NCBI GenBank assembly: GCA_016872675.1
Contig: VGZG01000003.1
Location: 175 to 64,174, forward strand
DNA length: 64,000 bases
Source of the DNA: Planctomycetota bacterium
GTDB lineage: Bacteria > Planctomycetota > UBA1135 > UBA2386
Direction of reading: 5' to 3'
The notes under the pieces are model-generated. The model had not been told where the DNA came from. It did not search any database and worked only from the letters and a program-made list of their open reading frames with translations. The position numbers and the translations under genes were made by a program. Shown here in pieces: positions 8,067 through 32,055 of the stretch (position 1 is the stretch's first letter; the number at the start of each line of letters is the position of its first letter).

Positions 8067-8884
8067 ATCCCCTCCGTCGCGTCAGTCCTCGGTTTGAACG
8101 CGAGCCCGATTGCCGTGCCCTTGATCGCGCATGCCTCGCCTGGCCGCGCTGGCTTCAGCATCTGCCACGATTCCAGGACGATCTGACTATCCGGCTTCGC
8201 GCCACCAAGCGCCTCGAGGAAGGTCAGCGCGGTGCGTTCGTCGGACTGGAATTGGAACGACAACTGCTCCTGCGTGAAGAAGTCGCGCACATCGATTTCA
8301 CCCGGTCGCTGCGCGCGCATCGGTGCGCGCTGGCTGCGGCGCGCGTCGAGCTTGAGTGACACAATCGACCGCAGACCCACGGCCGTCTCGTCGGTCGCGC
8401 GCGTGGCGTCGTGCGCGCCGTAGAGCCGCGCCTGGACCGCGTCGATCAGGTCCAGTCCGAAGAGCGTCGCGCGGATCTCGTCAACGCCGGTCGGGACCTC
8501 CCAGGCGATGGCGCCGTCGGCGACCTGGACGTCGCGCTGGTTTGCGCTGGCGAGGATGCGCTGCTTGAGGTCACGACTCTGCTGGAAGAGGAAGTCGCCT
8601 GGACGAACGCCATCCGGCAATTGAAAGGTCGCGCTGGGCGCGTACTGCAGCGCCTTGACGAGCGCGGCGCGCGCCTTGGCGAGTTCCTCACCCTCGGCGC
8701 GGGCGGCGTCGAGCGCGGCCTGCGTGTAGACCGGGCCAGTCGGCGCGCCGAGGCTGCGCTCGGTCGGCACCTGCACGGCGTGCACCGAGTCGAAGATCGC
8801 GCTGACAAGGAACCAGCTGACAGCGCCGCAGCCGACGCCGAGCAGCCACTTCTTGTTCTCCTGAACGAACGCGCCAACGTCCAT
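8063..8884 (-). CDS. PilO/GspM-like bitopic assembly protein
   Basis: The track ORF 8063-9607 has an Arg-rich N-terminal half that overlaps pilM in another frame. The real start is the ATG at 8884 (MDVGAFVQENKKWLLGVGCGAVSWFLVSAIF), which overlaps the PilMN stop as TGATG. The product has a single N-terminal TM segment and a periplasmic domain. Its position directly after PilM-PilN is the basis for the PilO/GspM-like label. Confidence 0.5.
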   Translation of the reverse strand: MDVGAFVQENKKWLLGVGCGAVSWFLVSAIFDSVHAVQVPTERSLGAPTGPVYTQAALDAARAEGEELAKARAALVKALQYAPSATFQLPDGVRPGDFLFQQSRDLKQRILASANQRDVQVADGAIAWEVPTGVDEIRATLFGLDLIDAVQARLYGAHDATRATDETAVGLRSIVSLKLDARRSQRAPMRAQRPGEIDVRDFFTQEQLSFQFQSDERTALTFLEALGGAKPDSQIVLESWQMLKPARPGEACAIKGTAIGLAFKPRTDATEGM

Positions 8885-10503
8885 CACATAGCCTCCTTGG
8901 CGAGTTCGACCGTGATGCGAAACCGCTCCGACTTGTCCTGACTGGGGATTGGCACCATCAGCGCCTCGAGACCAACCATGTTTGGGTCCGCCTGCATCGC
9001 CTGCTTGAACTTGAGGATCGCGCCGCTGGTCTGCACGCCATCGACCTCCTTGCCCGCGCCCTCGACGACGACGGTCGGCTTCTTGCGCACGCCGCCGCCG
9101 CCGCCCGACGTGACCTCGACCTTCTCGATCCACAACTGCGGCGGCACGTGCGCGGCGATGGCGCGCTGCACCCGCAGCAGGCCATGGTGCGCGAGCGACA
9201 GGCCAGCGAGGTGGTCGACGAGCGCGCGATCGGACTTGTTGGCGTCGATCTGCGCCGCGGCGTCGTTCTGCGCCGTGGTCGCCGCGATGATCTCCCGGCG
9301 CATTTTCTGGCCGGCGACCTCCGCCACGGCCACCGCCTTGCCGCCGTGACTCCACTCCAATGCGAGCGCGCCGACTACGAGCGCGCCGGCGACGATGTTC
9401 CAGACGGTGCGCTGCTGGAAGCGCTGCGCCTTGCGCACGGCCTCCGGCAGGATCTCGAGCGCATACAAGGAGTCGTCGAGCCGCCCGACGGCGAGGCCAA
9501 GCGCGACCACCGCTTCGGCGCGATGGGCCTGCAGCATCTCGGCGTCCGCCGGCGGCAGCGCCGAAAGGTCGACGTTGGCGAACGGATCGAAGACCTCGAC
9601 CGGGCACCGCAGCGCTTCGCGCAGGAAACCGCGGACACCGCGCACGTTGGCGCCGCCGCCGCTGAGCAGCACACGGTCGACCTTGAGGTCGGCGAGCTTA
9701 GCCTGGCTCTTGCAGAACGAGATCGAGGATTGGATCGCCGAACTGATCGCGCCGGCGGCCGACGTCGCCGCGAGCGCCACCTTCTCCGCCGCACCGCCGC
9801 CGTGCCGACCGCGGTTCTGCGGGTCGATGTCGAGCAGCTCCTTCTTGAGCGCCTCCGCCTTGCGTTCCGACACGTTGAAGGCCGACGCGATCGCGTCGTC
9901 GAACACCTTGGCGCCGGCGCTGAGGTTGCGCGCGAACAGCAGGTCGGTGCCCTTGCAGATCGCGAGGTCGATCGTCTGGTGGCCGATGTGAGCGAGGACG
10001 ACGACGCTGTCAGCCTCGACCGGACCGCACTTGAGGTAGGCGTTGTAGAGCGCCGTGCAGTTGGGCACGAACGCGGCGACCGCGCCGCCGGCGTCCTTGA
10101 CCTGCTGCTGGAGCCGGTCGAGCGCCTCGTCCTTGGCGAGCGCCAGCAGGATGGTGTCCACGCCGGACTCGGCGTCCTGAGTCGGCAGCAGGTTGTAGTC
10201 GGCGGACAACGCGCCGCCGGACTGCTGTGCGAGGTCGGCGATCTCGAGTTCCATCAGGTTGCGCAACTGCCAGTCCGGCGTCGGCGGCACCTGGCTGTAG
10301 CGCAGCATCATGTCGCGACCGGAGACGCCGCAGACGACACCCGCGAGCGGCAGCCCAACATCGCGCAGGGGCGCCGGCTCGCCATCCTCGCCGCGAGGCA
10401 GCGCCGCGAACCGCAGGATCTTCACGCCGCGTTTGTCGACCGACGCCGCCAGCGCCTTCGCGCTGTGGCTGCCTAGGTCGCATGCGATCGCTTTCTTCGC
10501 CAT
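8884..10503 (-). CDS. pilM: PilM-PilN fusion (GspL-like): actin-like ATPase-fold PilM domain, TM segment, PilN-like periplasmic domain
   Basis: 'MAKKAIACDLGSHSAKAL' and 'VLLSGGGANVRGVRGFLREAL' are PilM/FtsA-like actin-fold motifs. A TM segment 'VWNIVAGALVVGALALEW' follows at about residue 365, then a coiled/periplasmic region. Confidence 0.75.
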   Translation of the reverse strand: MAKKAIACDLGSHSAKALAASVDKRGVKILRFAALPRGEDGEPAPLRDVGLPLAGVVCGVSGRDMMLRYSQVPPTPDWQLRNLMELEIADLAQQSGGALSADYNLLPTQDAESGVDTILLALAKDEALDRLQQQVKDAGGAVAAFVPNCTALYNAYLKCGPVEADSVVVLAHIGHQTIDLAICKGTDLLFARNLSAGAKVFDDAIASAFNVSERKAEALKKELLDIDPQNRGRHGGGAAEKVALAATSAAGAISSAIQSSISFCKSQAKLADLKVDRVLLSGGGANVRGVRGFLREALRCPVEVFDPFANVDLSALPPADAEMLQAHRAEAVVALGLAVGRLDDSLYALEILPEAVRKAQRFQQRTVWNIVAGALVVGALALEWSHGGKAVAVAEVAGQKMRREIIAATTAQNDAAAQIDANKSDRALVDHLAGLSLAHHGLLRVQRAIAAHVPPQLWIEKVEVTSGGGGGVRKKPTVVVEGAGKEVDGVQTSGAILKFKQAMQADPNMVGLEALMVPIPSQDKSERFRITVELAKEAM

Positions 10504-10525: not shown

Positions 10526-12472
10526 TCAGTTGCCGAGGTGCTTCTGAATATACTCGCGGACGATCTGGCTCAGGCCGTCCTGCTGGGCGTCAGCGAACGC
10601 CTGCGCCAGCGCTTGCAGCCGTTGCCGCTGTTGCGCGGCAGTCTGCGCGTCGAACTCGGCGAGCTTGGCGCGGGCCGCGTCGCGCAGCGCCGTCGCAGCC
10701 TTGGCGTCGCCGAGGTTGCGCTCGCCATAGAGCGCGACGACGTCGTCGACGCCGAACGCGACGCGCTCGAAGCCGCCGCGCGTCGAGAAGAACGTCGCTT
10801 CGTCGAAATCGCGCTGCAGGTCCCGCAGCGTCGTGGCCTGCGCCGCCATTGTCTCGGCCGCGAGCGCGAGCGCATGGCCGAGGGTCTCGGAGTCCATCGG
10901 CACGCGGCTCGCGACCTCGCGCAGCTTGTCGAGCGTCTCACCCGGCCGGCCCTCGTCGCGCGCGCGGCGCGCCTGCCGAACGAGTTCGGCGGCTTGCTGT
11001 CGCTCGCCCCGGAACAGCACGTCGACCTCGAACTCCGCGAGCCCGATCGCCGAGATCCGGTAGCGGCCACCGCCAAAGCGGCCAACGCAATCGACTTCGC
11101 CGGCAAAACGAACGAGCGCGCGCGTGAGGTCTTCGCCGAATAGCGTCGAAACGCAGCGGAACGACGACGACGAGGCGCGCGACGTGAAAACGCCGTCGCT
11201 CGCGCCGGTGATCAGCGCCCCGGCGGCGGCCGCCGGCATCACGAGCTGCAGGCCGGGGGCATTGGCGGCGACGAAGCGGAAGCCTCGTTCGCCGACGGTC
11301 ACGGATAACGACGCGCCGAGGTCGCTCAGCGTCAGCAGATCGGCGCGATGCAGGCCGGCGAGCTCCGTCGGCGCCGGGTCGGGCAGGATCGCGAGCAGGA
11401 CCGCCGGCGCGTCCTTGTCGACCGTGCGCAGCGCGAGCGCATCACCGGTGCCGAAGACGGTGTGGCTGCCGTCGGCGAGCTTGGCTTCGACCGGCGCCGC
11501 CGAACCCGCTTCGATGACGCTGCAGTCGTCGACGTAAACGACCGCATCGGCGTTCGGCAGCGTCGCGACGACCTCCAGCTGCAGGCGGTCGCAGCCGGCC
11601 GGCGCCGCCAGCACGAGCTCGAGTCGCGTCCAGCCATCGGCCGCCGCCAGCTTGGTGCCAGTGCGGAAAGCGAATGGCGCTTGCTCGTTCGCCGACGCAA
11701 ACACCGCGCGCAGCGCGACGGTCGCGCCGCCCTCGGCGCGGACATGCGCGGCGAGCGTATAGGTGCGCTGCGGGAACACCGTCGTTGCGTCCTGCGCGCG
11801 CATCACGGCGAAGTCAGCCACGTCGGCGTTCTCGCCACGGCGTGCTTCGAACGCGCCGCTGCCGGTGTGCGCCACGCCACACGGGTTGAAGCCCGCGCCT
11901 GCCGGCCGCAGCGACCAACCATCGGCGGCCTCGCAACCGCTGACGCCGGCGGCGAGTTTGTCCCCCGCGACGGCGAGAATCGGCCGCGGTCCGGCGCTAA
12001 CGCCGCCACCGCCACCGACCTGCTGTGTTCGCCCGAGCCATAGGTACCCACCGGCGCCAAGACCGGCGACGAGCGCGAGTCCCAGTATTGCGGTCGAGCG
12101 CGAGCCCTTGCCCAGCCGCGAACGGTCGAGCGTGCGCAGCGCCACGGCGCCGCCCTCGGCGACGCCGACGGCGCTGGCGCCCTCCTCGCGGAAGGCCACG
12201 CGCCAGCGTCCGAAGGTCACCACGTCGCCGGGCGTCAACAAGAGCTCGGTGACGCGCTTGCCGTCCAGCAACGTGCCGTTGGTCGAGCCGAGATCCCGCA
12301 GGATGCAGCGATCGCCTTCGAGGACGATCTCGGCGTGGCTACCGGAAGTTTTCTCGTCGGCGAGGACCAGATCGTTGCCCGGCTTACGGCCGATGCGCAG
12401 CGGACGATCCGGGATCGCAACGACTTCGCCGGCTCGATCCCCGTCGAGGATCTCGAGGACGTACTTGGCCAT
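10526..12472 (-). CDS. FHA-domain protein with TM segment and CBM4/9-like carbohydrate-binding-type domain
   Basis: FHA signature: 'LRIGRKPGNDLVLADEKTSGSHAEI...LRDLGSTNGTLLDGKRV'. TM segment: 'TAILGLALVAGLGAGGYLWL'. The stretch 'GWSLRP...TYTLAAHVRAEGGATVALRAVF...WTRLELVLAAPAGCDRLQLEVV...VYVDDCSVIE' resembles the CBM_4_9 pattern. I moved the start to the ATG at 12472 (MAKYVLEIL). Confidence 0.8.
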   Translation of the reverse strand: MAKYVLEILDGDRAGEVVAIPDRPLRIGRKPGNDLVLADEKTSGSHAEIVLEGDRCILRDLGSTNGTLLDGKRVTELLLTPGDVVTFGRWRVAFREEGASAVGVAEGGAVALRTLDRSRLGKGSRSTAILGLALVAGLGAGGYLWLGRTQQVGGGGGVSAGPRPILAVAGDKLAAGVSGCEAADGWSLRPAGAGFNPCGVAHTGSGAFEARRGENADVADFAVMRAQDATTVFPQRTYTLAAHVRAEGGATVALRAVFASANEQAPFAFRTGTKLAAADGWTRLELVLAAPAGCDRLQLEVVATLPNADAVVYVDDCSVIEAGSAAPVEAKLADGSHTVFGTGDALALRTVDKDAPAVLLAILPDPAPTELAGLHRADLLTLSDLGASLSVTVGERGFRFVAANAPGLQLVMPAAAAGALITGASDGVFTSRASSSSFRCVSTLFGEDLTRALVRFAGEVDCVGRFGGGRYRISAIGLAEFEVDVLFRGERQQAAELVRQARRARDEGRPGETLDKLREVASRVPMDSETLGHALALAAETMAAQATTLRDLQRDFDEATFFSTRGGFERVAFGVDDVVALYGERNLGDAKAATALRDAARAKLAEFDAQTAAQQRQRLQALAQAFADAQQDGLSQIVREYIQKHLGN

Positions 12473-12686
12473 CGGTTGTATGTGGGGTCGGGCGGCAGGC
12501 ATGCCGCAGCAAGCGAAGCGCGCCGGCGGAGCGGCCGACGCACCGGATGGGTCGGGGACGCGAGCCCGCTGCCGGCCTGACACAAACTAGCCCGCCGCCG
12601 ATGCGCCGCAACCAACCGTTGGCAAGACTTCTATGCCGACTCTAGGTCGCCGCGCGGTGCCGTCGGCGTTACAACCTGCCGACGGG
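12473..12686. promoter_or_regulatory. Divergent intergenic region between the FHA/pseudopilin operon and rsmE
   Basis: A 214-bp non-coding gap lies between divergently oriented genes, so the promoters for both must sit here. I could not assign confident -35/-10 boxes. Confidence 0.3.
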
Positions 12687-21766: not shown

Positions 21767-21951
21767 GGTCGGTCGGTCCGGTCGCCGTGGATTATGCCTC
21801 GGCGCCGGCTCACTCAGTCCTAGGAAGGGCAAGAAAGGTACCGACAGCCGCTACTGGCGCAAGTGCGGCCCGGGGAAAACTCTGGCGCTGGGGTGTGATC
21901 CCCCTGACAACCGCTGCCACCGGGACGATCGCGCCCGCGAAGACCACGCCG

Positions 21952-22755
21952 ATGGACGCCCTGCTGACCTGTCTGCACCTCGCCGCCTATCTCGCTACTG
22001 GGCTGGGGCTCGCTGTGCCGCGCTGGCGGCGCGTCGCGATCGTCGCCCTGGCGGTCGCCGCCACCGCCGGCCTCGCCACCAGCCTGGGCGCTGGCGAGCG
22101 CGTCCTGACCACGGTGCACACCTACGCCGGCTTCGAGGGCATGCAGCAGGAGGTCTCGATGGTGAGTTTCCCGACCGGCACGGTGACCGCTCCGGGCTGG
22201 CAGTGGGCGGTCTGCTTTGGCGTCTTCGCGCTCGCCTGGGCCGCTGCGCTCGGCCTGCTGCGCGATCGGCCGCTGCGGAACCCCTTGCTGGCGCCGCTGC
22301 TGTTCGCGTGGACGGCGACCGCGGCGTGGCTCGGCATGGAGGCCACCGCCGCGCCCGCGGCGGTCGTGCAACCGGTCGGCCTCGATCGCTTCCTGTGGCC
22401 GGCAGGGCTCGCCTGTTCACTGCTCGTCTGCCGCCGCGCCAAGAGCTTCGGCGCGCTGTTCCTGCAGGTGGGACTCGCGGTGTCGCTCGCGCGCCTGCCG
22501 GCGGCCTTGTTCAGCAAGTTCGCCAGCGACGGCAAGCTCGGCACCACGCTCGACGTCAGCAGCGTCCGCGACATCGTCAATCCGATGACGCAGATGCAGT
22601 TCGACCCGCGGCTGCAGCCTGGCTCATCGGAGCAGCAGTTCTGGCTGATCTGGCTCGAGCATGTGCTGTTCTTCCCGGCGGTGCACATGATGAGCCTGTT
22701 CGGCATCGCATTCGGCCTGTGGCTGTACTACCGACACGAAAACGACCCGGCATGA
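21952..22755 (+). CDS. Polytopic membrane protein of unknown function (first gene of putative sulfur-relay operon)
   Basis: There are several hydrophobic segments (LHLAAYLATGLGLAV, VAIVALAVAATAGLA, WAVCFGVFALAWAAALGLL, FWLIWLEHVLFFPAVHMMSLFGIAFGLWLY). I set the start at ATG 21952. The next gene follows after 7 nt. Confidence 0.6.
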   Translation: MDALLTCLHLAAYLATGLGLAVPRWRRVAIVALAVAATAGLATSLGAGERVLTTVHTYAGFEGMQQEVSMVSFPTGTVTAPGWQWAVCFGVFALAWAAALGLLRDRPLRNPLLAPLLFAWTATAAWLGMEATAAPAAVVQPVGLDRFLWPAGLACSLLVCRRAKSFGALFLQVGLAVSLARLPAALFSKFASDGKLGTTLDVSSVRDIVNPMTQMQFDPRLQPGSSEQQFWLIWLEHVLFFPAVHMMSLFGIAFGLWLYYRHENDPA

Positions 22756-22762
22756 GGCGCGC

Positions 22763-23392
22763 GTGACCGGCTTCGACGACATCGATGACGATGACCTGTC
22801 GCCGGCCGAACTGGCGAGCCGCACCGAGGCGCTGCGCGTGACGGTGGCCGCCATCGCCGCCTCGCCGTGCCGTCGCTGTGGCGGACCGCTGTGCGGCCAC
22901 GCCGCGCTGCTGGCGGTCCTGTTCGGTTGCAAGGACGCGCCGCGCTGCCCCGACTGCCTTGCCAGCGAACACCGCGAACCGAAGTCCGCGATGGTCGCGC
23001 GCGCCGGCGAGTGGATCCGGCGCAAGGACTGCTTCCGCCACGTCTGGCACGAGGCCAGCCTGCGCGAGCACGGCAACGCGGCCGCAGCGCCCTCGTGCCT
23101 CGGCGCACCGACGTTGGCGAGCCGACCATCCCCGACGCTGGCCGCGCCCACGGATGCGCCGCCGTTACCGCCCGCGCCGGTCGCCACCTACGACGCCGGC
23201 GACCTCGGCTGTGGCGACCTCGTGTTCGAACTGCGTGGCAAGCTGCGCGAGATCGGCGCGGGCGAAGTGCTGCGCGTGCTCGCGCGCGACCCGGCGGCGC
23301 CGGTCGACCTGCCGGCTTGGTGTGGACTCACCGGCCACACGCTGGTGCGCGCGGCCCATCCCGAGTACCACGTGCAGCGCAAGTCCACCTAG
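22763..23392 (+). CDS. Cys-rich N-terminal domain fused to TusA/SirA-like sulfur-carrier domain (C-G variant of the CPxP motif)
   Basis: The C-terminus 'YDAGDLGCGDLVFELRGKLREIGAGEVLRVLARDPAAPVDLPAWCGLTGHTLV' follows the TusA pattern D-x-x-G-L-x-C-x-x-P...G-E-x-L-x-V...D...G-H. The N-terminus carries CxxC (36/39), C44, C56 and CxxC (62/65). Confidence 0.7.
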   Translation: MTGFDDIDDDDLSPAELASRTEALRVTVAAIAASPCRRCGGPLCGHAALLAVLFGCKDAPRCPDCLASEHREPKSAMVARAGEWIRRKDCFRHVWHEASLREHGNAAAAPSCLGAPTLASRPSPTLAAPTDAPPLPPAPVATYDAGDLGCGDLVFELRGKLREIGAGEVLRVLARDPAAPVDLPAWCGLTGHTLVRAAHPEYHVQRKST

Positions 23393-23401
23393 AGCCCACC
23401 C

Positions 23402-23761
23402 ATGAAGAAGTTCTGCGTCACCCTCACGTCCGCCAAGAACGACCCCGACAAGGCCACCGTCGCCTTCGTCGTCGCCAACGCCGCCGCGGCGAGCGAGCAG
23501 GAGACGGTGATGTTCCTCAGCGTCGAGGCCGTGCGCCTGTGCCAGCAGGGCTACGCCGACGACGTCGCCGAGGAAGGCTTCGCGCCGCTGAAGGACCTGA
23601 TCGCCAACTTCGTCAAGGCCGGCGGCAAGGTCTGGGTCTGCTCGCCGTGCTTCAAGCGCCGCAAGCTCGACGAAGCGAAGCTGATCCCCGGCGCCACGAT
23701 CGTCGGCGGCGCCAAGCTGGTCGAGTTCCTGTCGCAGGGCGCGCCCTGCGTCAGCTACTGA
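23402..23761 (+). CDS. DsrE/DsrF-like family protein
   Basis: 119 aa. 'KATVAFVVANAAAASEQETVMFLSVEAV' and 'GGKVWVCSPCFKRRKL...GATIVGGAKLVEFL' match the DsrE-like fold pattern, including the conserved Cys region. Confidence 0.75.
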   Translation: MKKFCVTLTSAKNDPDKATVAFVVANAAAASEQETVMFLSVEAVRLCQQGYADDVAEEGFAPLKDLIANFVKAGGKVWVCSPCFKRRKLDEAKLIPGATIVGGAKLVEFLSQGAPCVSY

Positions 23762-23786
23762 GTCCCGTTGGCGACGCGGCGCGGCG

Positions 23787-24515
23787 ATGAACGACCCCAG
23801 CGTGTTCGACCGTGCCGACGCGACCTGCGACGGCGGTGACCTCGACTGCGGCAGCGGGCTGCTGCTGATCATCCGCAGCGCCTTCCAGCCGGTCCCCGCC
23901 GGCGGCACGCTGTTGGTCAAGAGCCGCGAGACGTCGGTGCGCGAGGACCTGCCGGCGTGGTGCCGACTCGTCGGCCACACCATCGAGGCGGAGCGCGACG
24001 CCGACAACGGCTACCGCCACTTCCTGCTGCGCAAGAAGGCCGACGACCAGGCGCTCGCCGCCGACCTGCAGAAGGCCCGCGCGCACGTCTGGCAGACGCG
24101 CGCGCGCTGGACCGGCGGCATGCAGGCCAAGGCGACGATGCGCAACCACGCCGTCGCCATCGGCCAGCCGGCCAGCTTCGACACCGAGGACGCCGCGCCG
24201 TCCGCCATCGAGCTGCTGCTCGCCGCGGTCGCTGGCGCGCTGACCACCGGCTACCAGTGGCGGCTGTCGCAGAAGGGCGTCGACGTGCACGACCTCGAAG
24301 TCGTCGCCAAGGCCCGCTCCGACGACCCGCTGGTCTTCCTCGGCGTCGCCGCCGACGGCCATCCCGGCCTCGCCGAAGTCGAGGTCGTCGCCTACGTCAG
24401 CGCCAGTGGCGACGCCGACCTTGCCGCCGAATGGCAGCAGACGGTCCGTCGCTGCCCCGTGACCCAATCCCTGCTCCGCTCCGCCCCGGTGCGCACGACG
24501 CTGCGCGCCCTCTGA
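23787..24515 (+). CDS. TusA-like domain fused to OsmC/Ohr-family domain
   Basis: The N-terminus 'CDGGDLDCGSGLLLIIRSAFQPVPAGGTLLVKSRETSVREDLPAWCRLVGHTI' is TusA-like. The C-terminal half 'PSAIELLLAAVAGALTTGY...EVVAYVSASGDADL...RCPVTQSL' is OsmC-like. Confidence 0.75.
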   Translation: MNDPSVFDRADATCDGGDLDCGSGLLLIIRSAFQPVPAGGTLLVKSRETSVREDLPAWCRLVGHTIEAERDADNGYRHFLLRKKADDQALAADLQKARAHVWQTRARWTGGMQAKATMRNHAVAIGQPASFDTEDAAPSAIELLLAAVAGALTTGYQWRLSQKGVDVHDLEVVAKARSDDPLVFLGVAADGHPGLAEVEVVAYVSASGDADLAAEWQQTVRRCPVTQSLLRSAPVRTTLRAL

Positions 24516-24519
24516 TCCG

Positions 24520-25665
24520 ATGCGCCACCGCCCGATCCCCCGCTTCCCCGTCAGCGTCGTCGGCAGTTGGCCGCGGCCGCGCTGGTTGCTCGAGGCCATG
24601 CGCAAGAAGGCCGCCGACCTGCCGGAGCTGCGCGACCAGGCGACGCTGCTGGCGATCAAGCAGCAGGAGGACGCCGGCGTCGACGTGCTGACCGACGGCG
24701 AGCAGCGCCGCGACAACTTCTACTCGTTCCTGACCGAGAAGCTCGACGGTGTTGCGCTGATGACGATGGCCGACCTGCTCGACTACGTCGAGGACAAGGC
24801 GGCGTTCGAGGGCCTGCTGCAGGCGCTCGACGTGCCCGCCTTCGCAATCAAGAACCCCACCATCACGGGCCGCCTCGTCCGCCGCGAGCCGCTCGCCGTG
24901 CGCGAGGCCGAGTTCCTCCGCCGGCACACCACCCGCGCCACCAAGGTGGCGCTGCCGGGCCCGTACCTGCTGTCGCGCTCGATGTGGGTGCAGAAGCTGT
25001 CGTCGCAGGCCTACCCGACGCGCGATCTCCTGTGCGACGACATCGTCGCCATCCTGCGGGCCGAGCTGCAGGAAGTCGCCGACCTCGGCGTCGAGATCGT
25101 GCAGTTCGACGAACCCGTGCTGACCGAACTGGTGTTCGCCGGCAAGGCGGCGACGCGCACGTTCATGTGCGCTGCGCTCGCCGCCGCCGCCGACCCGGCC
25201 GCCGAACTGGAACTCGCGGTCCAGCTGATGAACCGCGTCACCGACGGCATCAAGGGCGTGCGCACCGCGGTGCACGTCTGCCGCGGCAACTGGAGCCGCA
25301 ACGAGGACGTGCTGCTGGCCGGCGACTACGCGCCGCTGCTGCCGCACCTCGCGCGCATGCAGGTCGACCAGTTCGTGCTCGAGTACGCGACGCCGCGCGC
25401 CGGGCCCGAAGCTCTGCTGACGCAATTGCCAGCGCGCGCCAGCGTCGGCTTCGGCGCGGTCAACCCGCGCACCGAGCCCGTCGAGGATCCGGCGGCGATC
25501 GCCGCCCGCGTCGGCAAGCTGGCGGAGTTGCTCGGCCCGGAGCGCATCTGGCTCAACCCGGACTGCGGCTTCGGCACCTTCGCCGAGCGACCGGTGGCCA
25601 CCGGCGAGGTGGCCGAACGTAAGTGCGCGATCCTGGCCGCGGCGGCGCGAGCGCTGCGCCGCTGA
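24520..25665 (+). CDS. Cobalamin-independent methionine-synthase-like (MetE C-terminal domain family) Zn methyltransferase
   Basis: 'SVVGSWPRP', 'VLTDGEQRRDNFYSF', the Zn-ligand-like 'AVHVCRGNW' (H-x-C) and 'IWLNPDCGFGT' (Cys) are present. The length of 381 aa is typical of single-domain MetE-like proteins. The gene starts 4 nt after the TusA-OsmC gene. Confidence 0.8.
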   Translation: MRHRPIPRFPVSVVGSWPRPRWLLEAMRKKAADLPELRDQATLLAIKQQEDAGVDVLTDGEQRRDNFYSFLTEKLDGVALMTMADLLDYVEDKAAFEGLLQALDVPAFAIKNPTITGRLVRREPLAVREAEFLRRHTTRATKVALPGPYLLSRSMWVQKLSSQAYPTRDLLCDDIVAILRAELQEVADLGVEIVQFDEPVLTELVFAGKAATRTFMCAALAAAADPAAELELAVQLMNRVTDGIKGVRTAVHVCRGNWSRNEDVLLAGDYAPLLPHLARMQVDQFVLEYATPRAGPEALLTQLPARASVGFGAVNPRTEPVEDPAAIAARVGKLAELLGPERIWLNPDCGFGTFAERPVATGEVAERKCAILAAAARALRR

Positions 25666-27739: not shown

Positions 27740-30700
27740 TCAGGCGCGCGCAGATCGCCGCCGCAGCGCGAGCCACTGCACGACCGGCGTCAGCAGCAGG
27801 CTGAGCACGAGGCACAGCGACTGGCCGCCGATGACGACGACGGCGATCGCCTTGCGCTCCTCGGCGCCCGGACCGGCGCCGACCGCCAACGGCAGCATGC
27901 CGGCGACGAACGCCAGCGTGGTCATCAGGATCGGCCGCAGCCGATCGCGGCTGCCCTGCACGACCGCGTCGTGCGCCGGCACGCCGGCGCGTAGCAGTTG
28001 GTTGGTGTGGTCGACCTGCAGGATGGCGTTCTTCTTGACCATCCCAAACAGCACGAGGATGCCGAGCGCCGAGTAGAGATTGAGCGTCTCGCCGGTCGCC
28101 CATAGCGACAGCAACGCAAATGGCGCGGCGACGGGGATCGCCAGCAGGATGATCAGCGGTTGCGTCAGACTCTCGAACTGCGCCGCCAGAATCATGTACA
28201 TGAAGACGAGCGCCAACAGGAACGCGCCGAGGAACTCGCCGCCGGCTTGCTCCAGTTCGCGCGCGCTGCCGGCGACGGCCGTCGAGTACTCGGCCGGCAG
28301 CCGCAGGTCGCCCGCCAGTCGGCGGAGGTCGGCGACGGCGTCGGCAAGCGCCGCGCCCGGCGCCGGGCTGCCGCGCAGGCTAGCCTGCCGCTGGCGGTCC
28401 ATGCGATCGATGCGGGACGACGTCGTCGCCGACTCGATGCGCACGAGGTTGTCGACACGCACGGTGCCGCCGTCGCCGCGGCCAACCAGCAGCTCGCCGA
28501 TGCGGTCGACGCGCTGCCGGTCCGCCTCGCGCAGGCGCAGGCGGACGTCGTACTCCTCGTCGAGCTTGGGGTCGCGGAAGCGCGACACCTCAGTCACGCC
28601 ACCGACCATCAACCGCAGCGCCGTGGCGATGTCCTGGGTCGAAACGCCGAGTTCGGCGGCGCGCGGTCGGTCGATCTGCACGCGCAACTCCGGTCGCCGC
28701 AGCCGCAGGGTCGTGTCGAGGTCGATCATCGAGCCGGACTTGTTGGCGGTCACGCGCAGGTCCTCGACCGCTGTCGCCAGCGTCGCCAGGTCGGGGCCGC
28801 GGATGGCGAAGTCGAGCGGGAACGGTCCGCCGCCAAGGTTGAAGCTGCGCTGGTTGCGCACCGAGACGCGCACATCGGTCAGCTTGCGCAGCCGCTGGCG
28901 GATCTCCGCCATGACCTCGCGCTGCGTGTAGTTGCCGCGGAACGCCGCCGCCGGATCGCCGACGAACGTGGCGCGAACCAGCCGATCGAGCGAGAAACGC
29001 CGGCGCTCGTGCGGCACGATGCGCACGAAGACGCTGCCGTTTGACAACCCGCCGAGGAAGCCGCCACCGACCTGGGTCAGTGCCGCTTCGACGGCCGGGA
29101 CCTGGGCCAGCTCAACCTCGACAGCGCGCATGACGCCGTCCATCGCCGCGAGGCTGGCATCGTCCGGGCCGTTGACGGCGATCTCGAACTCGCCTTCGTC
29201 GACGTCGCTCGGGATGAAGTCCTGCCGCACCGTGCCGGCGAGCAGCACAGTGCTGGCGACGACGAGCGCCGAGCCGAGCACGACGAGCCACGGCCGGCGC
29301 AGGCAGCCGCACAGCGCCGCGGCGTAGGCGCGCTCGGACCAGCCGCCGCCGTGGCTGGGTTTCGCGTCGGCCGGTCGCACCAGCCGCGCGCACATCGCCG
29401 GCGTCAGCGTGAACGACACCACCAGCGACAGCAGCACGGCGACCGCGGCGGTGATGCCAAACTGGAAGAGGAACCTGCCGGTGATGCTCGACAAGAACGA
29501 CACCGGCACGAAGATCACGACGAGGCTCAGCGTCGTCGCCAGCACCGCTAGCGCGATCTCGCCGACCGCCTCGCGCGCCGCCTGGAACGGCGGCAGGCCC
29601 TGCTCGTCGGCCCAGCGCTGCACGTTCTCCAGCACGACGATGGCGTCGTCGATGACGACGCCGACCATCAGCACCAGCGCCAGCATGGTCACGCCGTTGA
29701 GCGTGAACCCCAACGTCCACATGACGCCGAAGGTGGCCACGACCGACACTGGGATCGCGACGCCGGCGATCAGCGTGGCGCGCCAGCTGCGCAGGAACCA
29801 CAGCACCACCAGCGCCGCCAGCAGCGAGCCGACCACGAGATGGAATTCGATCTCGTGCAGGGCGGCGCGGATGTAGCGCGACTGGTCGCGGACGATCTCC
29901 AGACGCAGGTCCGGCGGCAGCTGCGCGCGCAGGGCTTCGATTGGACCGAGCAAGCCGTCGATGACGGCGACGGTGTTGGCGCCCGATTGCCGGCGCACCT
30001 CCATCACCACCGTCGGCACGCCGTCTAGGCGCGCCAGTGAGCGCGCCTCGGCGGTGCCGTCCTCGATGCGCGCGACGTCGCCGAGCTCGACCGGCACGCC
30101 GTTGCGACGGGCGATGGTCAGCGTGCGGAAGGCCGCCGGGTCGAGCACTCGGCCGAGCGTGCGCAGGGTGCGTTCGCGCTGGTCGTCGGTGACGTTGCCG
30201 CCGGGCACGTCGCTGTTCTGACGGCGGATCGCGTCGCTGACGGCATCGACCGGCAAGTCGTAGGCGGCGAGCCGATCGGCGTCGACCCAGACGTTGATCG
30301 TGCGCTCGATGTCGCCGACGAGCCGAACCTCGCCGACGCCGCGGCCGCGCTCGAGCACACGCTTGATGCGCTTGTCGGCGATCTCGGACAGTTCGCGCAT
30401 CGGCCGATCGCCGGCCAGCGCGAGGGTGAGCACCGGCGAGCTGTCGCTGTCGAACTTGCTGACCACCGGCGGTTCGCAGTCCTCCGGCAGGCGACGCATC
30501 GCCTGCGACACGCGGTCGCGCACGTCCTGCGCGGCGGCGTCGATGTCGCGGCCAAGGTCGAACGTCACCAGCACCAGCGACGTGCCGGCGCCCGATATCG
30601 AGCGCAGTTCGCGAATGCCCTCGACGGTGTTGACGATCTCCTCGATCGGGTACGTGACCGAGACCTCGACCTCCTCGGGCGCGCCGCCGGGCAGCTCGGT

Positions 30701-30847
30701 GCGCACGGTGACGGTCGGCAGGTCGTAGGCGGGGTAGCGGTCGACGGCGAGGAAACGGAAGCCGACGGCGCCGGCGACCACCATCGCCAGGATCAACATG
30801 GTCGCGAAAACCGGCCGGTGGATGCAGACGTCGGCGAGCTTGCGCAC
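27740..30847 (-). CDS. RND efflux transporter permease (AcrB/HAE-type), 1035 aa
   Basis: The gene starts at GTG 30847 ('(M)RKLADVCIHRPVFATMLILAMVVAGAVGF'), a typical RND N-terminus. It has the 12-TM two-large-loop layout. The track ORF to 31411 adds an Arg-rich 188-aa extension that overlaps the MFP gene. The start lies 2 nt after the MFP stop. Confidence 0.9.
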   Translation of the reverse strand: MRKLADVCIHRPVFATMLILAMVVAGAVGFRFLAVDRYPAYDLPTVTVRTELPGGAPEEVEVSVTYPIEEIVNTVEGIRELRSISGAGTSLVLVTFDLGRDIDAAAQDVRDRVSQAMRRLPEDCEPPVVSKFDSDSSPVLTLALAGDRPMRELSEIADKRIKRVLERGRGVGEVRLVGDIERTINVWVDADRLAAYDLPVDAVSDAIRRQNSDVPGGNVTDDQRERTLRTLGRVLDPAAFRTLTIARRNGVPVELGDVARIEDGTAEARSLARLDGVPTVVMEVRRQSGANTVAVIDGLLGPIEALRAQLPPDLRLEIVRDQSRYIRAALHEIEFHLVVGSLLAALVVLWFLRSWRATLIAGVAIPVSVVATFGVMWTLGFTLNGVTMLALVLMVGVVIDDAIVVLENVQRWADEQGLPPFQAAREAVGEIALAVLATTLSLVVIFVPVSFLSSITGRFLFQFGITAAVAVLLSLVVSFTLTPAMCARLVRPADAKPSHGGGWSERAYAAALCGCLRRPWLVVLGSALVVASTVLLAGTVRQDFIPSDVDEGEFEIAVNGPDDASLAAMDGVMRAVEVELAQVPAVEAALTQVGGGFLGGLSNGSVFVRIVPHERRRFSLDRLVRATFVGDPAAAFRGNYTQREVMAEIRQRLRKLTDVRVSVRNQRSFNLGGGPFPLDFAIRGPDLATLATAVEDLRVTANKSGSMIDLDTTLRLRRPELRVQIDRPRAAELGVSTQDIATALRLMVGGVTEVSRFRDPKLDEEYDVRLRLREADRQRVDRIGELLVGRGDGGTVRVDNLVRIESATTSSRIDRMDRQRQASLRGSPAPGAALADAVADLRRLAGDLRLPAEYSTAVAGSARELEQAGGEFLGAFLLALVFMYMILAAQFESLTQPLIILLAIPVAAPFALLSLWATGETLNLYSALGILVLFGMVKKNAILQVDHTNQLLRAGVPAHDAVVQGSRDRLRPILMTTLAFVAGMLPLAVGAGPGAEERKAIAVVVIGGQSLCLVLSLLLTPVVQWLALRRRSARA

Positions 30848-30849
30848 GG

Positions 30850-32055
30850 CTACTCCACGACCTGCACCGGCGTCTCGGGCGCGAGCCCGACCGCCACGGC
30901 GACGACTAGTTCGCCGACGGCGACACCGCGCACGATTTCGACCGCGTCGCCAACCGGCCGGCCGAGTTCGACCAGCACGCCCTTGGCGCGCGGCGTGCCA
31001 TCCGCAGCGCTGGCGACAGTGAACACGCGGTCGACGCCGGCAAAGGTCACCACCGCCGCGCGCGGCACGGTGACGACCGGCGCGGCCGCCGCGACGACGA
31101 TGCGCGCCCGGCAGAACGCGCCCGGCAGCAGCGCGCCGTCGGCGTTCTGCACCTCGGCCTCGACGAGGCGCGTGCGATCGCCCCGGTCGATCGCCGGACC
31201 GGTGCGCACCACCTTGCCGACGCGCTCGGCGACATCGGCGCCGTCGACCGTGAACTCGACGGCCTGGCCGGCGGCGACGCCGAAGGCGAGGCGATCGGGC
31301 ACGCGCAACCGCAGCCGCAGCGGCTCGATGCGCAGCAGCGTCACCACTGGCGCGCCGCCCTGCACCACCTGGCCGACGGCGACGTGACGCATGGCGACGC
31401 GGCCCTGCCACGGCGCCGTGATGATGGCGTCGCGCCGGCGCTTGTGCGCCTGTGCCAGTTCGATGCGGCGCAGCCTGGCGTCGGCGATCCAGGTGCGAAC
31501 GTCGTCGCGGGCGCGGCGCAGCCGGTTCTCGGCCACGGCCAGCGCCGCGGTCGCGACCTCTAGCTGCGCGGTCGCCTGCAGCGAGCCCTCGACCAACTTG
31601 ACCACGCGCTCACGGTTGAGCCGGGCCTCGACCAGCACGGCCTCGGCTTCGCGCACACTCGGCGCCTGCTCGACGTCGAACGCCGCCGGATCGGCGGCGG
31701 CGGCGAGTCCGAGCCGCGCGTCGGACGCGCCCACCGCCGCTTCGGCGCGCTCGATCGCGAGGTCGAACTCGCGCGGATCGAGCGTCGCGACCACATCGCC
31801 GGCGGCGACCACATCGCCGACGTCAACGCCGAGTGAGGCGATGCGGCCGCCGACCTCGAGGCCGAGCACCAATTCTTCCTGGGCGGCGAGCACGCCGCTG
31901 ACGGCGACCTTGATCGGCAACGCCGCGGCCGCGGCGGCGACGAGCCGCACCGCCTTGGGCGCGCGCGGCGCCGCGCCGACGCCAGAGGCCGCGGGCTTGG
32001 CGCACGCGGCGAGCGCGGCGACCAGCACGATGTGCGCGAGTCGACGAGACCTCAC
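30850..32055 (-). CDS. RND efflux periplasmic adaptor (MFP/HlyD family), lipoprotein
   Basis: The gene starts at GTG 32055 ('(M)RSRRLAHIVLVAALAACAKP', lipobox LAAC). It has a barrel-sandwich/coiled-coil pattern ('ITAPWQGRVAMRHVAVGQVV', 'RLRLRVPD'). The start overlaps the stop of ATP-grasp A as GTGA. Confidence 0.85.
   Translation of the reverse strand: MRSRRLAHIVLVAALAACAKPAASGVGAAPRAPKAVRLVAAAAAALPIKVAVSGVLAAQEELVLGLEVGGRIASLGVDVGDVVAAGDVVATLDPREFDLAIERAEAAVGASDARLGLAAAADPAAFDVEQAPSVREAEAVLVEARLNRERVVKLVEGSLQATAQLEVATAALAVAENRLRRARDDVRTWIADARLRRIELAQAHKRRRDAIITAPWQGRVAMRHVAVGQVVQGGAPVVTLLRIEPLRLRLRVPDRLAFGVAAGQAVEFTVDGADVAERVGKVVRTGPAIDRGDRTRLVEAEVQNADGALLPGAFCRARIVVAAAAPVVTVPRAAVVTFAGVDRVFTVASAADGTPRAKGVLVELGRPVGDAVEIVRGVAVGELVVAVAVGLAPETPVQVVE

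Follow-up and report, generated by a model that had tools for sequence, protein, structure and literature searches.

The operon in the window

A group of five genes is described here from a 64,000-nucleotide stretch of DNA of a Planctomycetota bacterium (assembly GCA_016872675.1, contig VGZG01000003.1, positions 175 to 64,174; the whole stretch is referred to below as the window), in which proteins of the TusA, DsrE and OsmC types are encoded together with a relative of the methionine synthase MetE. The genes form five open reading frames (ORFs) on the + strand at 21952-25665, with intergenic gaps of 7, 9, 25 and 4 nucleotides, and the ORF map bears out in this respect an earlier note on the same DNA that had been made from the letters alone. 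Gene g1 (21952-22755) encodes a polytopic membrane protein of 267 residues. It is followed by g2 (22763-23392), with a Cys-rich N-terminal domain and a TusA-like domain, by g3 (23402-23761), encoding a DsrE-like protein of 119 residues, by g4 (23787-24515), in which a TusA-like domain (about residues 12-85) is fused to an OsmC-like domain (residues 134-237), and by g5 (24520-25665), encoding a single-barrel MetE-like Zn enzyme of 381 residues.

The G+C content of the window is about 71%, and the closest relatives of the operon are found in metagenome-assembled genomes (MAGs) of Planctomycetota/Phycisphaerales, with identities of 97% for g5 and 91-93% for g4. The presumed promoter region, assigned by position only, is the divergent intergenic stretch at 21833-21951 between g1 and rpmI-rplT-pheS-pheT (- strand); a convergent S46 peptidase gene flanks the operon on the other side. 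A scan of the operon for sigma-70-like sites, internal terminators and Rfam elements found none, which fits co-transcription of the five genes.

Conservation of a four-gene cassette

In a scan of one genome per species with an alignment of g4, at least 532 loci were found to encode the TusA-OsmC protein. The best 80 of these were fetched by way of g4 and compared, their gene order being read by tblastn with the window proteins. Per-residue counts refer to 76 orthologues of g2, 81 loci of g3, 82 loci of g4 and about 81 orthologues of g5. Compared loci are denoted by L-numbers. Relatives denoted by P-numbers come from a search for the g5 family among 1.84 billion cluster representatives, 149 of which matched at E <= 1e-30, a compact family.

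The conserved unit consists of four genes, not five, in the order short TusA, DsrE, TusA-OsmC, MetE-like. Order and strand are kept in essentially all of the best 80 loci, although the flanks are unrelated. These loci belong to nine phyla, namely Planctomycetota, Acidobacteriota, Methylomirabilota/NC10, Verrucomicrobiota, Dormibacterota, Actinomycetota, Bacillota, Desulfobacterota and Pseudomonadota; the carriers include Bacillaceae (Bacillus, Neobacillus, Niallia and Schinkia), Desulfopila aestuarii DSM 18488 for the Desulfobacterota and one Pseudomonadota MAG. The MetE-like gene follows the TusA-OsmC gene in 79 of the 80 loci, three of which (L050, L053 and L069) have an insertion of 1-3 kb between the two, with genes that are uninformative as to function. 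Wherever the DsrE gene is lacking, the contig is cut; the short TusA gene lies upstream in 76 loci. Moreover, a search starting from g5 found three large contigs of other Planctomycetota with the same cassette in entirely different flanks. Such a recurrence, in about 80 independent loci whose flanks are not related, goes far beyond what chance would give. No plasmid-borne copy was found.

The membrane protein g1 has about 6-7 hydrophobic segments and no match in Pfam or NCBIfam. It is probably co-transcribed with the cassette, given the gap of 7 nucleotides. Its homologues adjoin the cassette only in the three nearest relatives (L006-L008), are found 3.5 kb upstream of it in L010 and L014, and are missing by tblastn from the remaining loci, about 75 in number. 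It was therefore rejected as a core component and is regarded as a lineage-specific accessory. Thus the comparison across genomes that the earlier note had suggested reveals a strongly conserved neighbourhood, and its five-gene unit holds across phyla for g2 to g5, but not for g1.

The putative carrier proteins

The domains that had been named from the letters were all recovered with profile models, the TusA-like domain of g4 being below threshold in the window copy. In g2 the Pfam TusA model (PF01206, cut-off 28.6 bits) matches residues 142-197 (23186-23353) with 35.5 bits. This domain contains the motif GDLGCGDL, in which the presumed carrier residue Cys150 (23210-23212) is kept in 76 of 76 orthologues, and a second cysteine, Cys187 (23321-23323), in the motif LPAWC. 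The N-terminal domain of g2 (residues 1-135; 22763-23167) has the conserved pattern C36-x2-C39 ... C62-x2-C65 ... C90 and no Pfam match; it is present in 35 loci only, from Planctomycetota, NC10 and some Acidobacteriota, and is missing in Bacillaceae and many others. By its cysteine pattern it is probably a metal-binding module (Zn or Fe-S), an optional addition to the short TusA protein.

The DsrE-like protein g3 (60.2 bits to PF02635, cut-off 22.7) is better conserved than any other cassette protein, with 50-98% identity across phyla. It carries a C80-S-P-C83 motif (23639-23650), of which C80 is found in 81 of 81 loci and C83 in 80 of 81, the remaining locus, L045, having TGA at that codon. 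The nearest solved structure is 3MC3, a Cys of which aligns with C80, and we take this position to be equivalent to Cys78 of TusD/DsrE.

The fused protein g4 scores 44.3 bits for OsmC and, in the window copy, 22.4 bits for TusA. Most of its orthologues carry PF01206, however, and the NCBIfam TusA model aligns over residues 6-85. The TusA-like domain of g4 is marked by the invariant DGGDLDC21GSGLLL (containing GDLDCGSG) and by LPAWC59, with C21 and C59 present in 82 of 82 loci. In neither g2 nor g4 is the canonical C-P-x-P of TusA found: g2 has G-C-G-[DE]-L instead (76/76) and g4 has D-C-G-S-G (82/82), so that the replacement by C-G in both domains, already noticed in the window copies, is general.

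The OsmC domain of the window g4 has Ala151 and Cys223, that is, one of the two OsmC cysteines. Among the 82 loci, 45 have the first cysteine only (C,S), 18 the second only (A,C) and 19 neither, and no copy has both the peroxidatic and the resolving cysteine. All NCBIfam OsmC models score below their cut-offs for g4, the best being 'OsmC-related (seleno)protein'. A role as a 2-Cys peroxidase was therefore rejected. In the first reading of the sequence OsmC/Ohr had been described as proteins of the thiol-peroxidase fold; the absence of the cysteines from 19 of the 82 loci shows that peroxidase activity is not a core function. Since there are both copies with neither cysteine and lineages in which the domain is dropped from gene fusions (see below), the OsmC domain does not appear, from sequence, to be essential to the module.

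The MetE-like enzyme

The product of g5 matches Meth_synt_2 (PF01717) with 89.7 bits. Its Zn ligands H252 (codon at 25273), C254 (25279), E288 (25381) and C349 (25564), which include the H-x-C and C motifs seen at first inspection, are invariant in about 81 orthologues, and so are the homocysteine-binding residues S16, E61 and D197. The counterparts in Escherichia coli MetE are H641, C643, E665 and C726 for Zn, and S433, E484 and D599 for homocysteine (PMC7857596). With all the Zn-binding and homocysteine-binding residues present, g5 belongs to the MetE-type catalytic barrel (PF01717 superfamily).

The AlphaFold2 model of g5 is a single (beta-alpha)8 barrel with a predicted local distance difference test score (pLDDT) of 86 and a predicted template modelling score (pTM) of 0.89, the lid loop at residues 205-225 being of low confidence. 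The best match in both sequence and fold is MesD of Shewanella (3RPD), with 24-25% identity and a TM-score of 0.72-0.81, and the next-best fold matches are the C-terminal barrels of MetE. Two conserved insertions, at residues 83-110 and in the lid loop 205-225, are specific to g5.

Assignment to either of the two known families was rejected. For MetE (TIGR01371) g5 reaches 64.7 bits, where the cut-off is 929.95, and for Meth_synt_1 it reaches 17.6, where the cut-off is 27; an N-terminal barrel is lacking. For MesD the score is 89.7 bits against at least 390, in a comparison made through 3RPD with a threshold set on proteins of the ACIAD3523 type, and there is no adjacent MesX. The sequence comparison thus describes a relative of methionine synthase without a characterised counterpart among the families compared.

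Cys217 and its replacement by TGA

In the window, residue 217 of g5 is a cysteine (25168-25170, codon TGC) within a T-F-M-C stretch of the lid loop. In the model it follows the D197 strand directly and so belongs to the catalytic face. Among the best 80 loci this residue is Cys in 73 and an in-frame stop in seven, and every stop is TGA, never TAA or TAG. TGA is found in L035, L061, L069, L070, L077, L080 and L082, as well as in L088 (513-1700). The TGA forms belong to at least three clades, two of which have diverged to 61-83% identity, while the third is low in G+C and has its TGA written as Trp by the gene caller. The alignment is unbroken downstream of the TGA (377-455 bits overall), and clusters in the database that stop precisely at '...RTFM' or '...SFY' represent truncated calls of TGA-bearing genes. 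Five proteobacterial-type loci share a hairpin 15 nucleotides after the TGA, with a 6-bp stem and the 6-nucleotide loop CGKGAY; by its position it resembles a selenocysteine insertion sequence, but it is invariant and has no covariation support.

Pseudogene formation was rejected as the cause of these codons, which occupy the same position in at least three clades, are always TGA and leave the frame intact downstream. The aligned TGA, the continuing ORF and the hairpin by which bacterial selenoproteins are recognised are all seen in orthologues of g5, but not in the window copy with its TGC. It is therefore probable, from the sequences, that the TGA-encoded residue 217 is selenocysteine (Sec), and these MetE-like orthologues seem to form a selenoprotein family that has not been catalogued. 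A position held by either Sec or Cys is the mark of a catalytic nucleophile or of a redox residue, and Cys217 is likely to be the end-point of the relay discussed below. The TGA at the C83 codon of the DsrE-like gene of an Acidobacteriota locus (L045:2385-2387) changes its motif to C-S-P-U. No PF01717 or MetE-like selenoprotein is listed in the 2026 catalogue of prokaryotic selenoproteins (PMC13188914), whereas DsrE-like and OsmC-like selenoproteins had been predicted earlier (PMC1088965).

Gene fusions and relatives lacking Cys217

In five relatives (P0246, P0253, P0303, P0314 and P0251) the MetE-like domain is fused, in one protein, straight to a TusA-like domain of the g4 type ('DGG[DE]LDCG[SN]GLLL ... 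LPAWC'), and OsmC is missing. The order in the fusion loci is short TusA, DsrE, then the TusA::MetE-like fusion, the fusion genes lying at L086:4340-5914, at L087:494-1996 and in L091. Such a natural fusion indicates that carrier and enzyme are directly coupled. Conversely, two relatives without Cys217, P0244 (47% identity) and P0262 (38%), have no TusA or DsrE neighbours.

A metagenomic protein of 503 residues, P0279, also joins TusA to the MetE-like domain but has lost every Zn ligand as well as Cys217. Judged by its sequence, it is apparently an inactivated or re-purposed paralogue.

Neighbouring genes

All flanking ORFs of the fetched loci were clustered for comparison. The recurrent neighbours are limited to TusA, DsrE, OsmC, transglutaminase-like proteins, LysR regulators and porins; DUF1852/MesX is not among them. 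In 39 of the 83 loci, from Planctomycetota, Acidobacteriota, NC10 and Verrucomicrobiia, the gene immediately upstream, read in the same direction, encodes an exported transglutaminase-like protein. This protein, exemplified by L003:5172-6248, L047:5236-6342 and L023:4716-5954, carries a signal peptide or lipobox, and its Cys-His-Asp triad is conserved. Putative anion porins of the outer membrane also recur beside the cassette, either Alginate_exp-like (L001:4306-5526, - strand, and six other loci) or Porin_O_P-like (L049:8921-10531, - strand, and four other Acidobacteriota loci). In one Acidobacteriota locus (L022:7727-8311), g4 is followed by a DsrE-like protein with a twin-arginine translocation (Tat) signal and a C-P-P-C motif instead of by the MetE-like gene.

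In seven Bacillaceae loci (L068, L071, L072 at 8903-9367, L073, L076, L079 and L081) the MetE-like gene is followed directly by a second, stand-alone OsmC gene. In four of the seven (L072, L076, L081 and possibly others), the fused OsmC domain is without cysteines. A divergent or upstream LysR regulator is found in six loci (L066:5321-6208, - strand; L068, L070, L071, L073 and L079), five from Bacillaceae and one from a Pseudomonadota MAG. With 251-303 bits, all six exceed the 250-bit cut-off of NF040786, 'selenium metabolism-associated LysR'. This match was downgraded as independent evidence of a selenium function, as the label may itself derive from this neighbourhood.

NifS/IscS-type cysteine desulfurases are the canonical sulfur donors to TusA, and three unrelated lineages have a gene for one no more than 3 kb from the cassette (L030:8729-10075, + strand; L061:1995-3284, - strand; L065:3854-5017, - strand). 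The flanks contain no conserved thioredoxin or thioredoxin reductase, no recurring selD, selA, selB, yedE or yedF, and no corrinoid protein genes. Corrinoid proteins of the Wood-Ljungdahl pathway, or methanogenesis, are the link by which MesA, MesB and MesC are recognised. Neither S-adenosylmethionine (SAM) riboswitches nor T-box or other relevant Rfam elements were found upstream of the cassette in ten Bacillaceae loci, or in the window. The lack of methionine riboswitches in Bacillaceae, together with the scattered distribution and the dedicated LysR regulators, suggests that the role of the cassette is accessory rather than housekeeping.

Elsewhere in the window, no tRNA, tRNA-Sec or transglutaminase homologue was found, and Pfam searches with ten large ORFs at 1-17 kb and 27.7-33.4 kb gave unrelated or unassigned genes only. 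These include a PilM-like gene at 8884-10503, a gene for an FHA-domain protein at 10526-12583, and an ORF for an AcrB-type transporter of the resistance-nodulation-division family at 27740-31411 (- strand). In the last of these about 190 Arg/Gly/Ala-rich residues precede the ACR_tran domain, which probably reflects an over-extended start in high-G+C DNA.

A proposed Cys-to-Cys relay and its alternatives

The conserved neighbourhood, the invariant cysteines of the carriers and the TusA::MetE-like fusion make a Cys-based relay serving the MetE-like enzyme the best reading of the cassette. The earlier note had proposed a protein-persulfide relay that feeds or detoxifies a thiol substrate of this enzyme; this is supported in part, but Cys217 had been missed. 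What the comparisons show is the synteny, the invariant cysteines, the Sec/Cys pair at residue 217, the fusion, and the retention of the Zn-binding and homocysteine-binding residues in the enzyme. In its full form, the reading is that sulfane sulfur passes from Cys to Cys and ends on Cys/Sec217, with Zn-assisted transfer to or from a homocysteine-type substrate. We favour it tentatively, at somewhat less than even confidence.

Three small carriers would take part, the short TusA-like protein, the DsrE-like protein with its C-S-P-C motif, and the TusA-like domain of g4. They would hand sulfane sulfur (persulfide), or an equivalent S-S or S-Se exchange, along the chain from C150 of the short TusA to C80/C83 of DsrE, to C21 of g4 and finally to Cys/Sec217 of g5. 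There Cys217, on its mobile lid loop, would meet a homocysteine-type or methionine-type substrate held in the Zn site and by the S16/E61/D197 triad. The net reaction preferred is a Zn-assisted transfer of sulfur to or from a homocysteine-type substrate; the product might be a homocysteine thiol formed without free sulfide, or its persulfide or a mixed disulfide. The disulfide between Cys217 and the carrier would then be resolved by the CxxC of DsrE. Outside this chain, g1, the OsmC domain and the N-terminal domain of g2 would be accessories of particular lineages. Characterised TusA/DsrE systems carry sulfane sulfur, and it is from this analogy, together with the occasional adjacent desulfurase, that we infer the cargo; what is said here of the substrate, of the net reaction and of which way the transfer runs is likewise proposed.

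Several points weigh against such a relay. As far as the sequences go, the cargo could be reducing equivalents, selenium or a methyl group instead of sulfur. Neither TusA-like domain has the canonical carrier motif, and the CxxC of DsrE, with its CxxU variant, resembles a dithiol/disulfide redox motif, so that a relay of electrons fits equally well. A Zn-thiolate site classically alkylates homocysteine and does not make it, and the lack of SAM and T-box riboswitches in the ten Bacillaceae loci argues against a routine role in methionine or homocysteine biosynthesis in that family. A desulfurase gene is rarely adjacent (3 of about 80 loci). Moreover, the loop of Cys217 is modelled at low confidence (pLDDT 53-61), and it is presumed to lie close to the Zn site. 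Nor does the relay account for the exported transglutaminase-like neighbour in 39 of 83 loci or for the nearby porins.

In one alternative, g5 would be a thiol-disulfide reductase for an oxidised derivative of methionine or homocysteine, such as methionine sulfoxide, homocystine, a mixed disulfide or S-sulfo-homocysteine. Cys/Sec217 would attack, C21 of TusA would resolve, with the OsmC cysteine where present, and the CxxC of DsrE would recycle the disulfide, while Zn would act as a Lewis acid or stabilise the leaving group. Sec/Cys pairs are characteristic of catalytic residues with redox roles, for example in MsrA, peroxiredoxins and thioredoxin-like proteins (PMC13188914), both C-S-P-C and C-S-P-U are of redox type, there is an attached domain of the OsmC fold, with a further OsmC gene downstream in the seven Bacillaceae loci, and the cassette is without methionine riboswitch control. 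Known sulfoxide and disulfide reductases, however, need no Zn-thiolate site, electron transfer is not known for TusA or DsrE, the surroundings have no conserved thioredoxin system, and the OsmC cysteines are dispensable and the domain itself is lost in the fusion lineages; we regard a reductase as unlikely. In another alternative, g5 would be a fifth, relay-dependent 'core' methionine synthase. Zn-bound homocysteine would be methylated, with Cys/Sec217 as transient methyl carrier or helper nucleophile in place of cob(I)alamin, and TusA, DsrE and OsmC would be the counterpart of MesX, delivering, generating or regenerating the methyl donor or keeping the active site reduced. Every Zn ligand and homocysteine-binding residue defined for MetE is invariant, the closest relative in structure and sequence is MesD (3RPD), which likewise needs a dedicated partner protein (PMC7857596), and Sec at methyl-acceptor positions is known in methyltransferase-type selenoproteins (PMC13188914). 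But no corrinoid, folate-binding or SAM domain was found in the cassette proteins with Pfam and NCBIfam, thioethers and selenoethers are, on general chemical grounds, poor methyl donors, the carriers TusA and DsrE carry sulfur and not methyl, and the ten Bacillaceae loci lack the SAM and T-box riboswitches that are normal there for methionine genes. A methionine synthase is thus held to be doubtful as well, and the methylation of thiols that had been attributed to the MetE-like enzyme in the first reading finds no evident methyl donor and no riboswitch of the methionine genes in the Bacillaceae copies.

The cassette might also handle selenium, with carriers that bind perselenide or selenotrisulfide and an enzyme that acts on selenohomocysteine or selenomethionine, for salvage or detoxification. 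DsrE-like and OsmC-like selenoproteins are indeed known (PMC1088965), the best NCBIfam match of the OsmC domain is the (seleno)protein model, and all six neighbouring LysR regulators pass the NF040786 cut-off. Of these signals, however, the OsmC matches are below cut-off, and the LysR label is possibly drawn from adjacency to such selenoprotein genes and so is not independent. The selenium genes selD, selA, selB, yedE and yedF do not recur in the flanks, and Sec in the enzyme signals a catalytic residue rather than a selenium substrate, most cassettes using Cys. We consider this reading improbable. Finally, every domain family concerned is common and all are generically annotated, as would be expected of an ordinary methionine-synthase paralogue that merely lies beside unrelated stress and sulfur genes. 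This is contradicted by the gene fusions and by a synteny that persists through nine phyla, in about 80 loci whose flanks are unrelated, and Cys217 is present where the relay is present; there is hardly any likelihood that the genes are chance neighbours.

Comparison with known systems

The persulfide relays TusA-TusBCD-TusE and Rhd-TusA-DsrEFH-DsrC end on MnmA or DsrAB. The cassette resembles them in that proteins of the TusA and DsrE folds with conserved cysteines are encoded together, sometimes beside a desulfurase, and would pass sulfur on to an enzyme at the end of the chain. It differs in having C-G instead of C-P-x-P, a single DsrE-like protein with CxxC instead of the DsrEFH or TusBCD heterotrimer, no TusE or DsrC, and a terminal enzyme that is MetE-like rather than MnmA or DsrAB. 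Similarly, g4 shares with the OsmC/Ohr thiol peroxidases the OsmC fold, a P-S-A-x-E-x-L-L-x-A motif and a recognisable C-P-V region, but its peroxidatic and resolving cysteines never occur together, it is fused to TusA, and the fusion lineages do without its OsmC domain. In having Sec for the Cys of a sulfur-carrier fold, the DsrE-like protein of L045 is like the predicted DsrE-like, OsmC-like and rhodanese-like selenoproteins (PMC1088965, PMC13188914); its C-S-P-U differs from the UxxC of the catalogued DsrE-like selenoprotein.

With full-length MetE (TIGR01371), g5 shares the (beta-alpha)8 catalytic barrel, the Zn ligands and the homocysteine-binding residues. Unlike MetE, it is without the N-terminal Meth_synt_1 folate barrel and has an extra catalytic Cys/Sec. 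MesD, of the MesD/MesX system (Price et al. 2021, PMC7857596; 3RPD), is likewise a single MetE-like barrel without the folate-binding N-terminal barrel, and has the same H-C-E-C Zn site, the S/E/D homocysteine triad and a dedicated neighbouring partner. In contrast, g5 has only 24-25% identity to it, falls short of the MesD threshold (89.7 against at least 390 bits), and has no DUF1852/MesX neighbour; it also has its own insertions (83-110 and the 205-225 lid) and Cys/Sec217, which are missing in MesD. Moreover, MesD needs O2, whereas the g5 family is found in strict anaerobes as well as aerobes.

The cassette is therefore built from known parts, and no characterised counterpart was found. The earlier note had stated that its author was unaware of a characterised operon with this combination; in the literature searched, neither the cassette nor a MetE-like selenoprotein is indeed described, a mention in Haft & Tolstoy 2025 or in BSepDB not being excluded.

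Implications

How methyl-folate is replaced in the core MetE-like enzymes is open even for MesD/MesX, and the g5 family is distinct from these and widespread. The fusion, the synteny and the Sec/Cys pair name its partners and point to a catalytic residue that had gone unnoticed, which makes the question directly testable; the family is present in cultivable Neobacillus, Niallia, Schinkia and Desulfopila. The current labels 'methionine synthase' and 'OsmC family protein' probably mislead metabolic reconstruction in Planctomycetota, Acidobacteriota and NC10 genomes.

It is possible, although we put it below even likelihood and a little below the relay itself, that the MetE-like proteins are a new enzyme class and selenoprotein family: a cofactor-free Zn enzyme that uses a covalent Cys/Sec fed by the relay and makes or breaks the C-S (or S-S) bond of homocysteine. 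If so, a member of the MetE fold would be added to the bacterial selenoproteins, and the TusA/DsrE relays would be extended to a new type of terminal enzyme. For the organisms concerned, this would mean a sulfide-independent and pyridoxal phosphate-independent route into the homocysteine/methionine branch, or a fifth, relay-dependent form of methionine synthesis.

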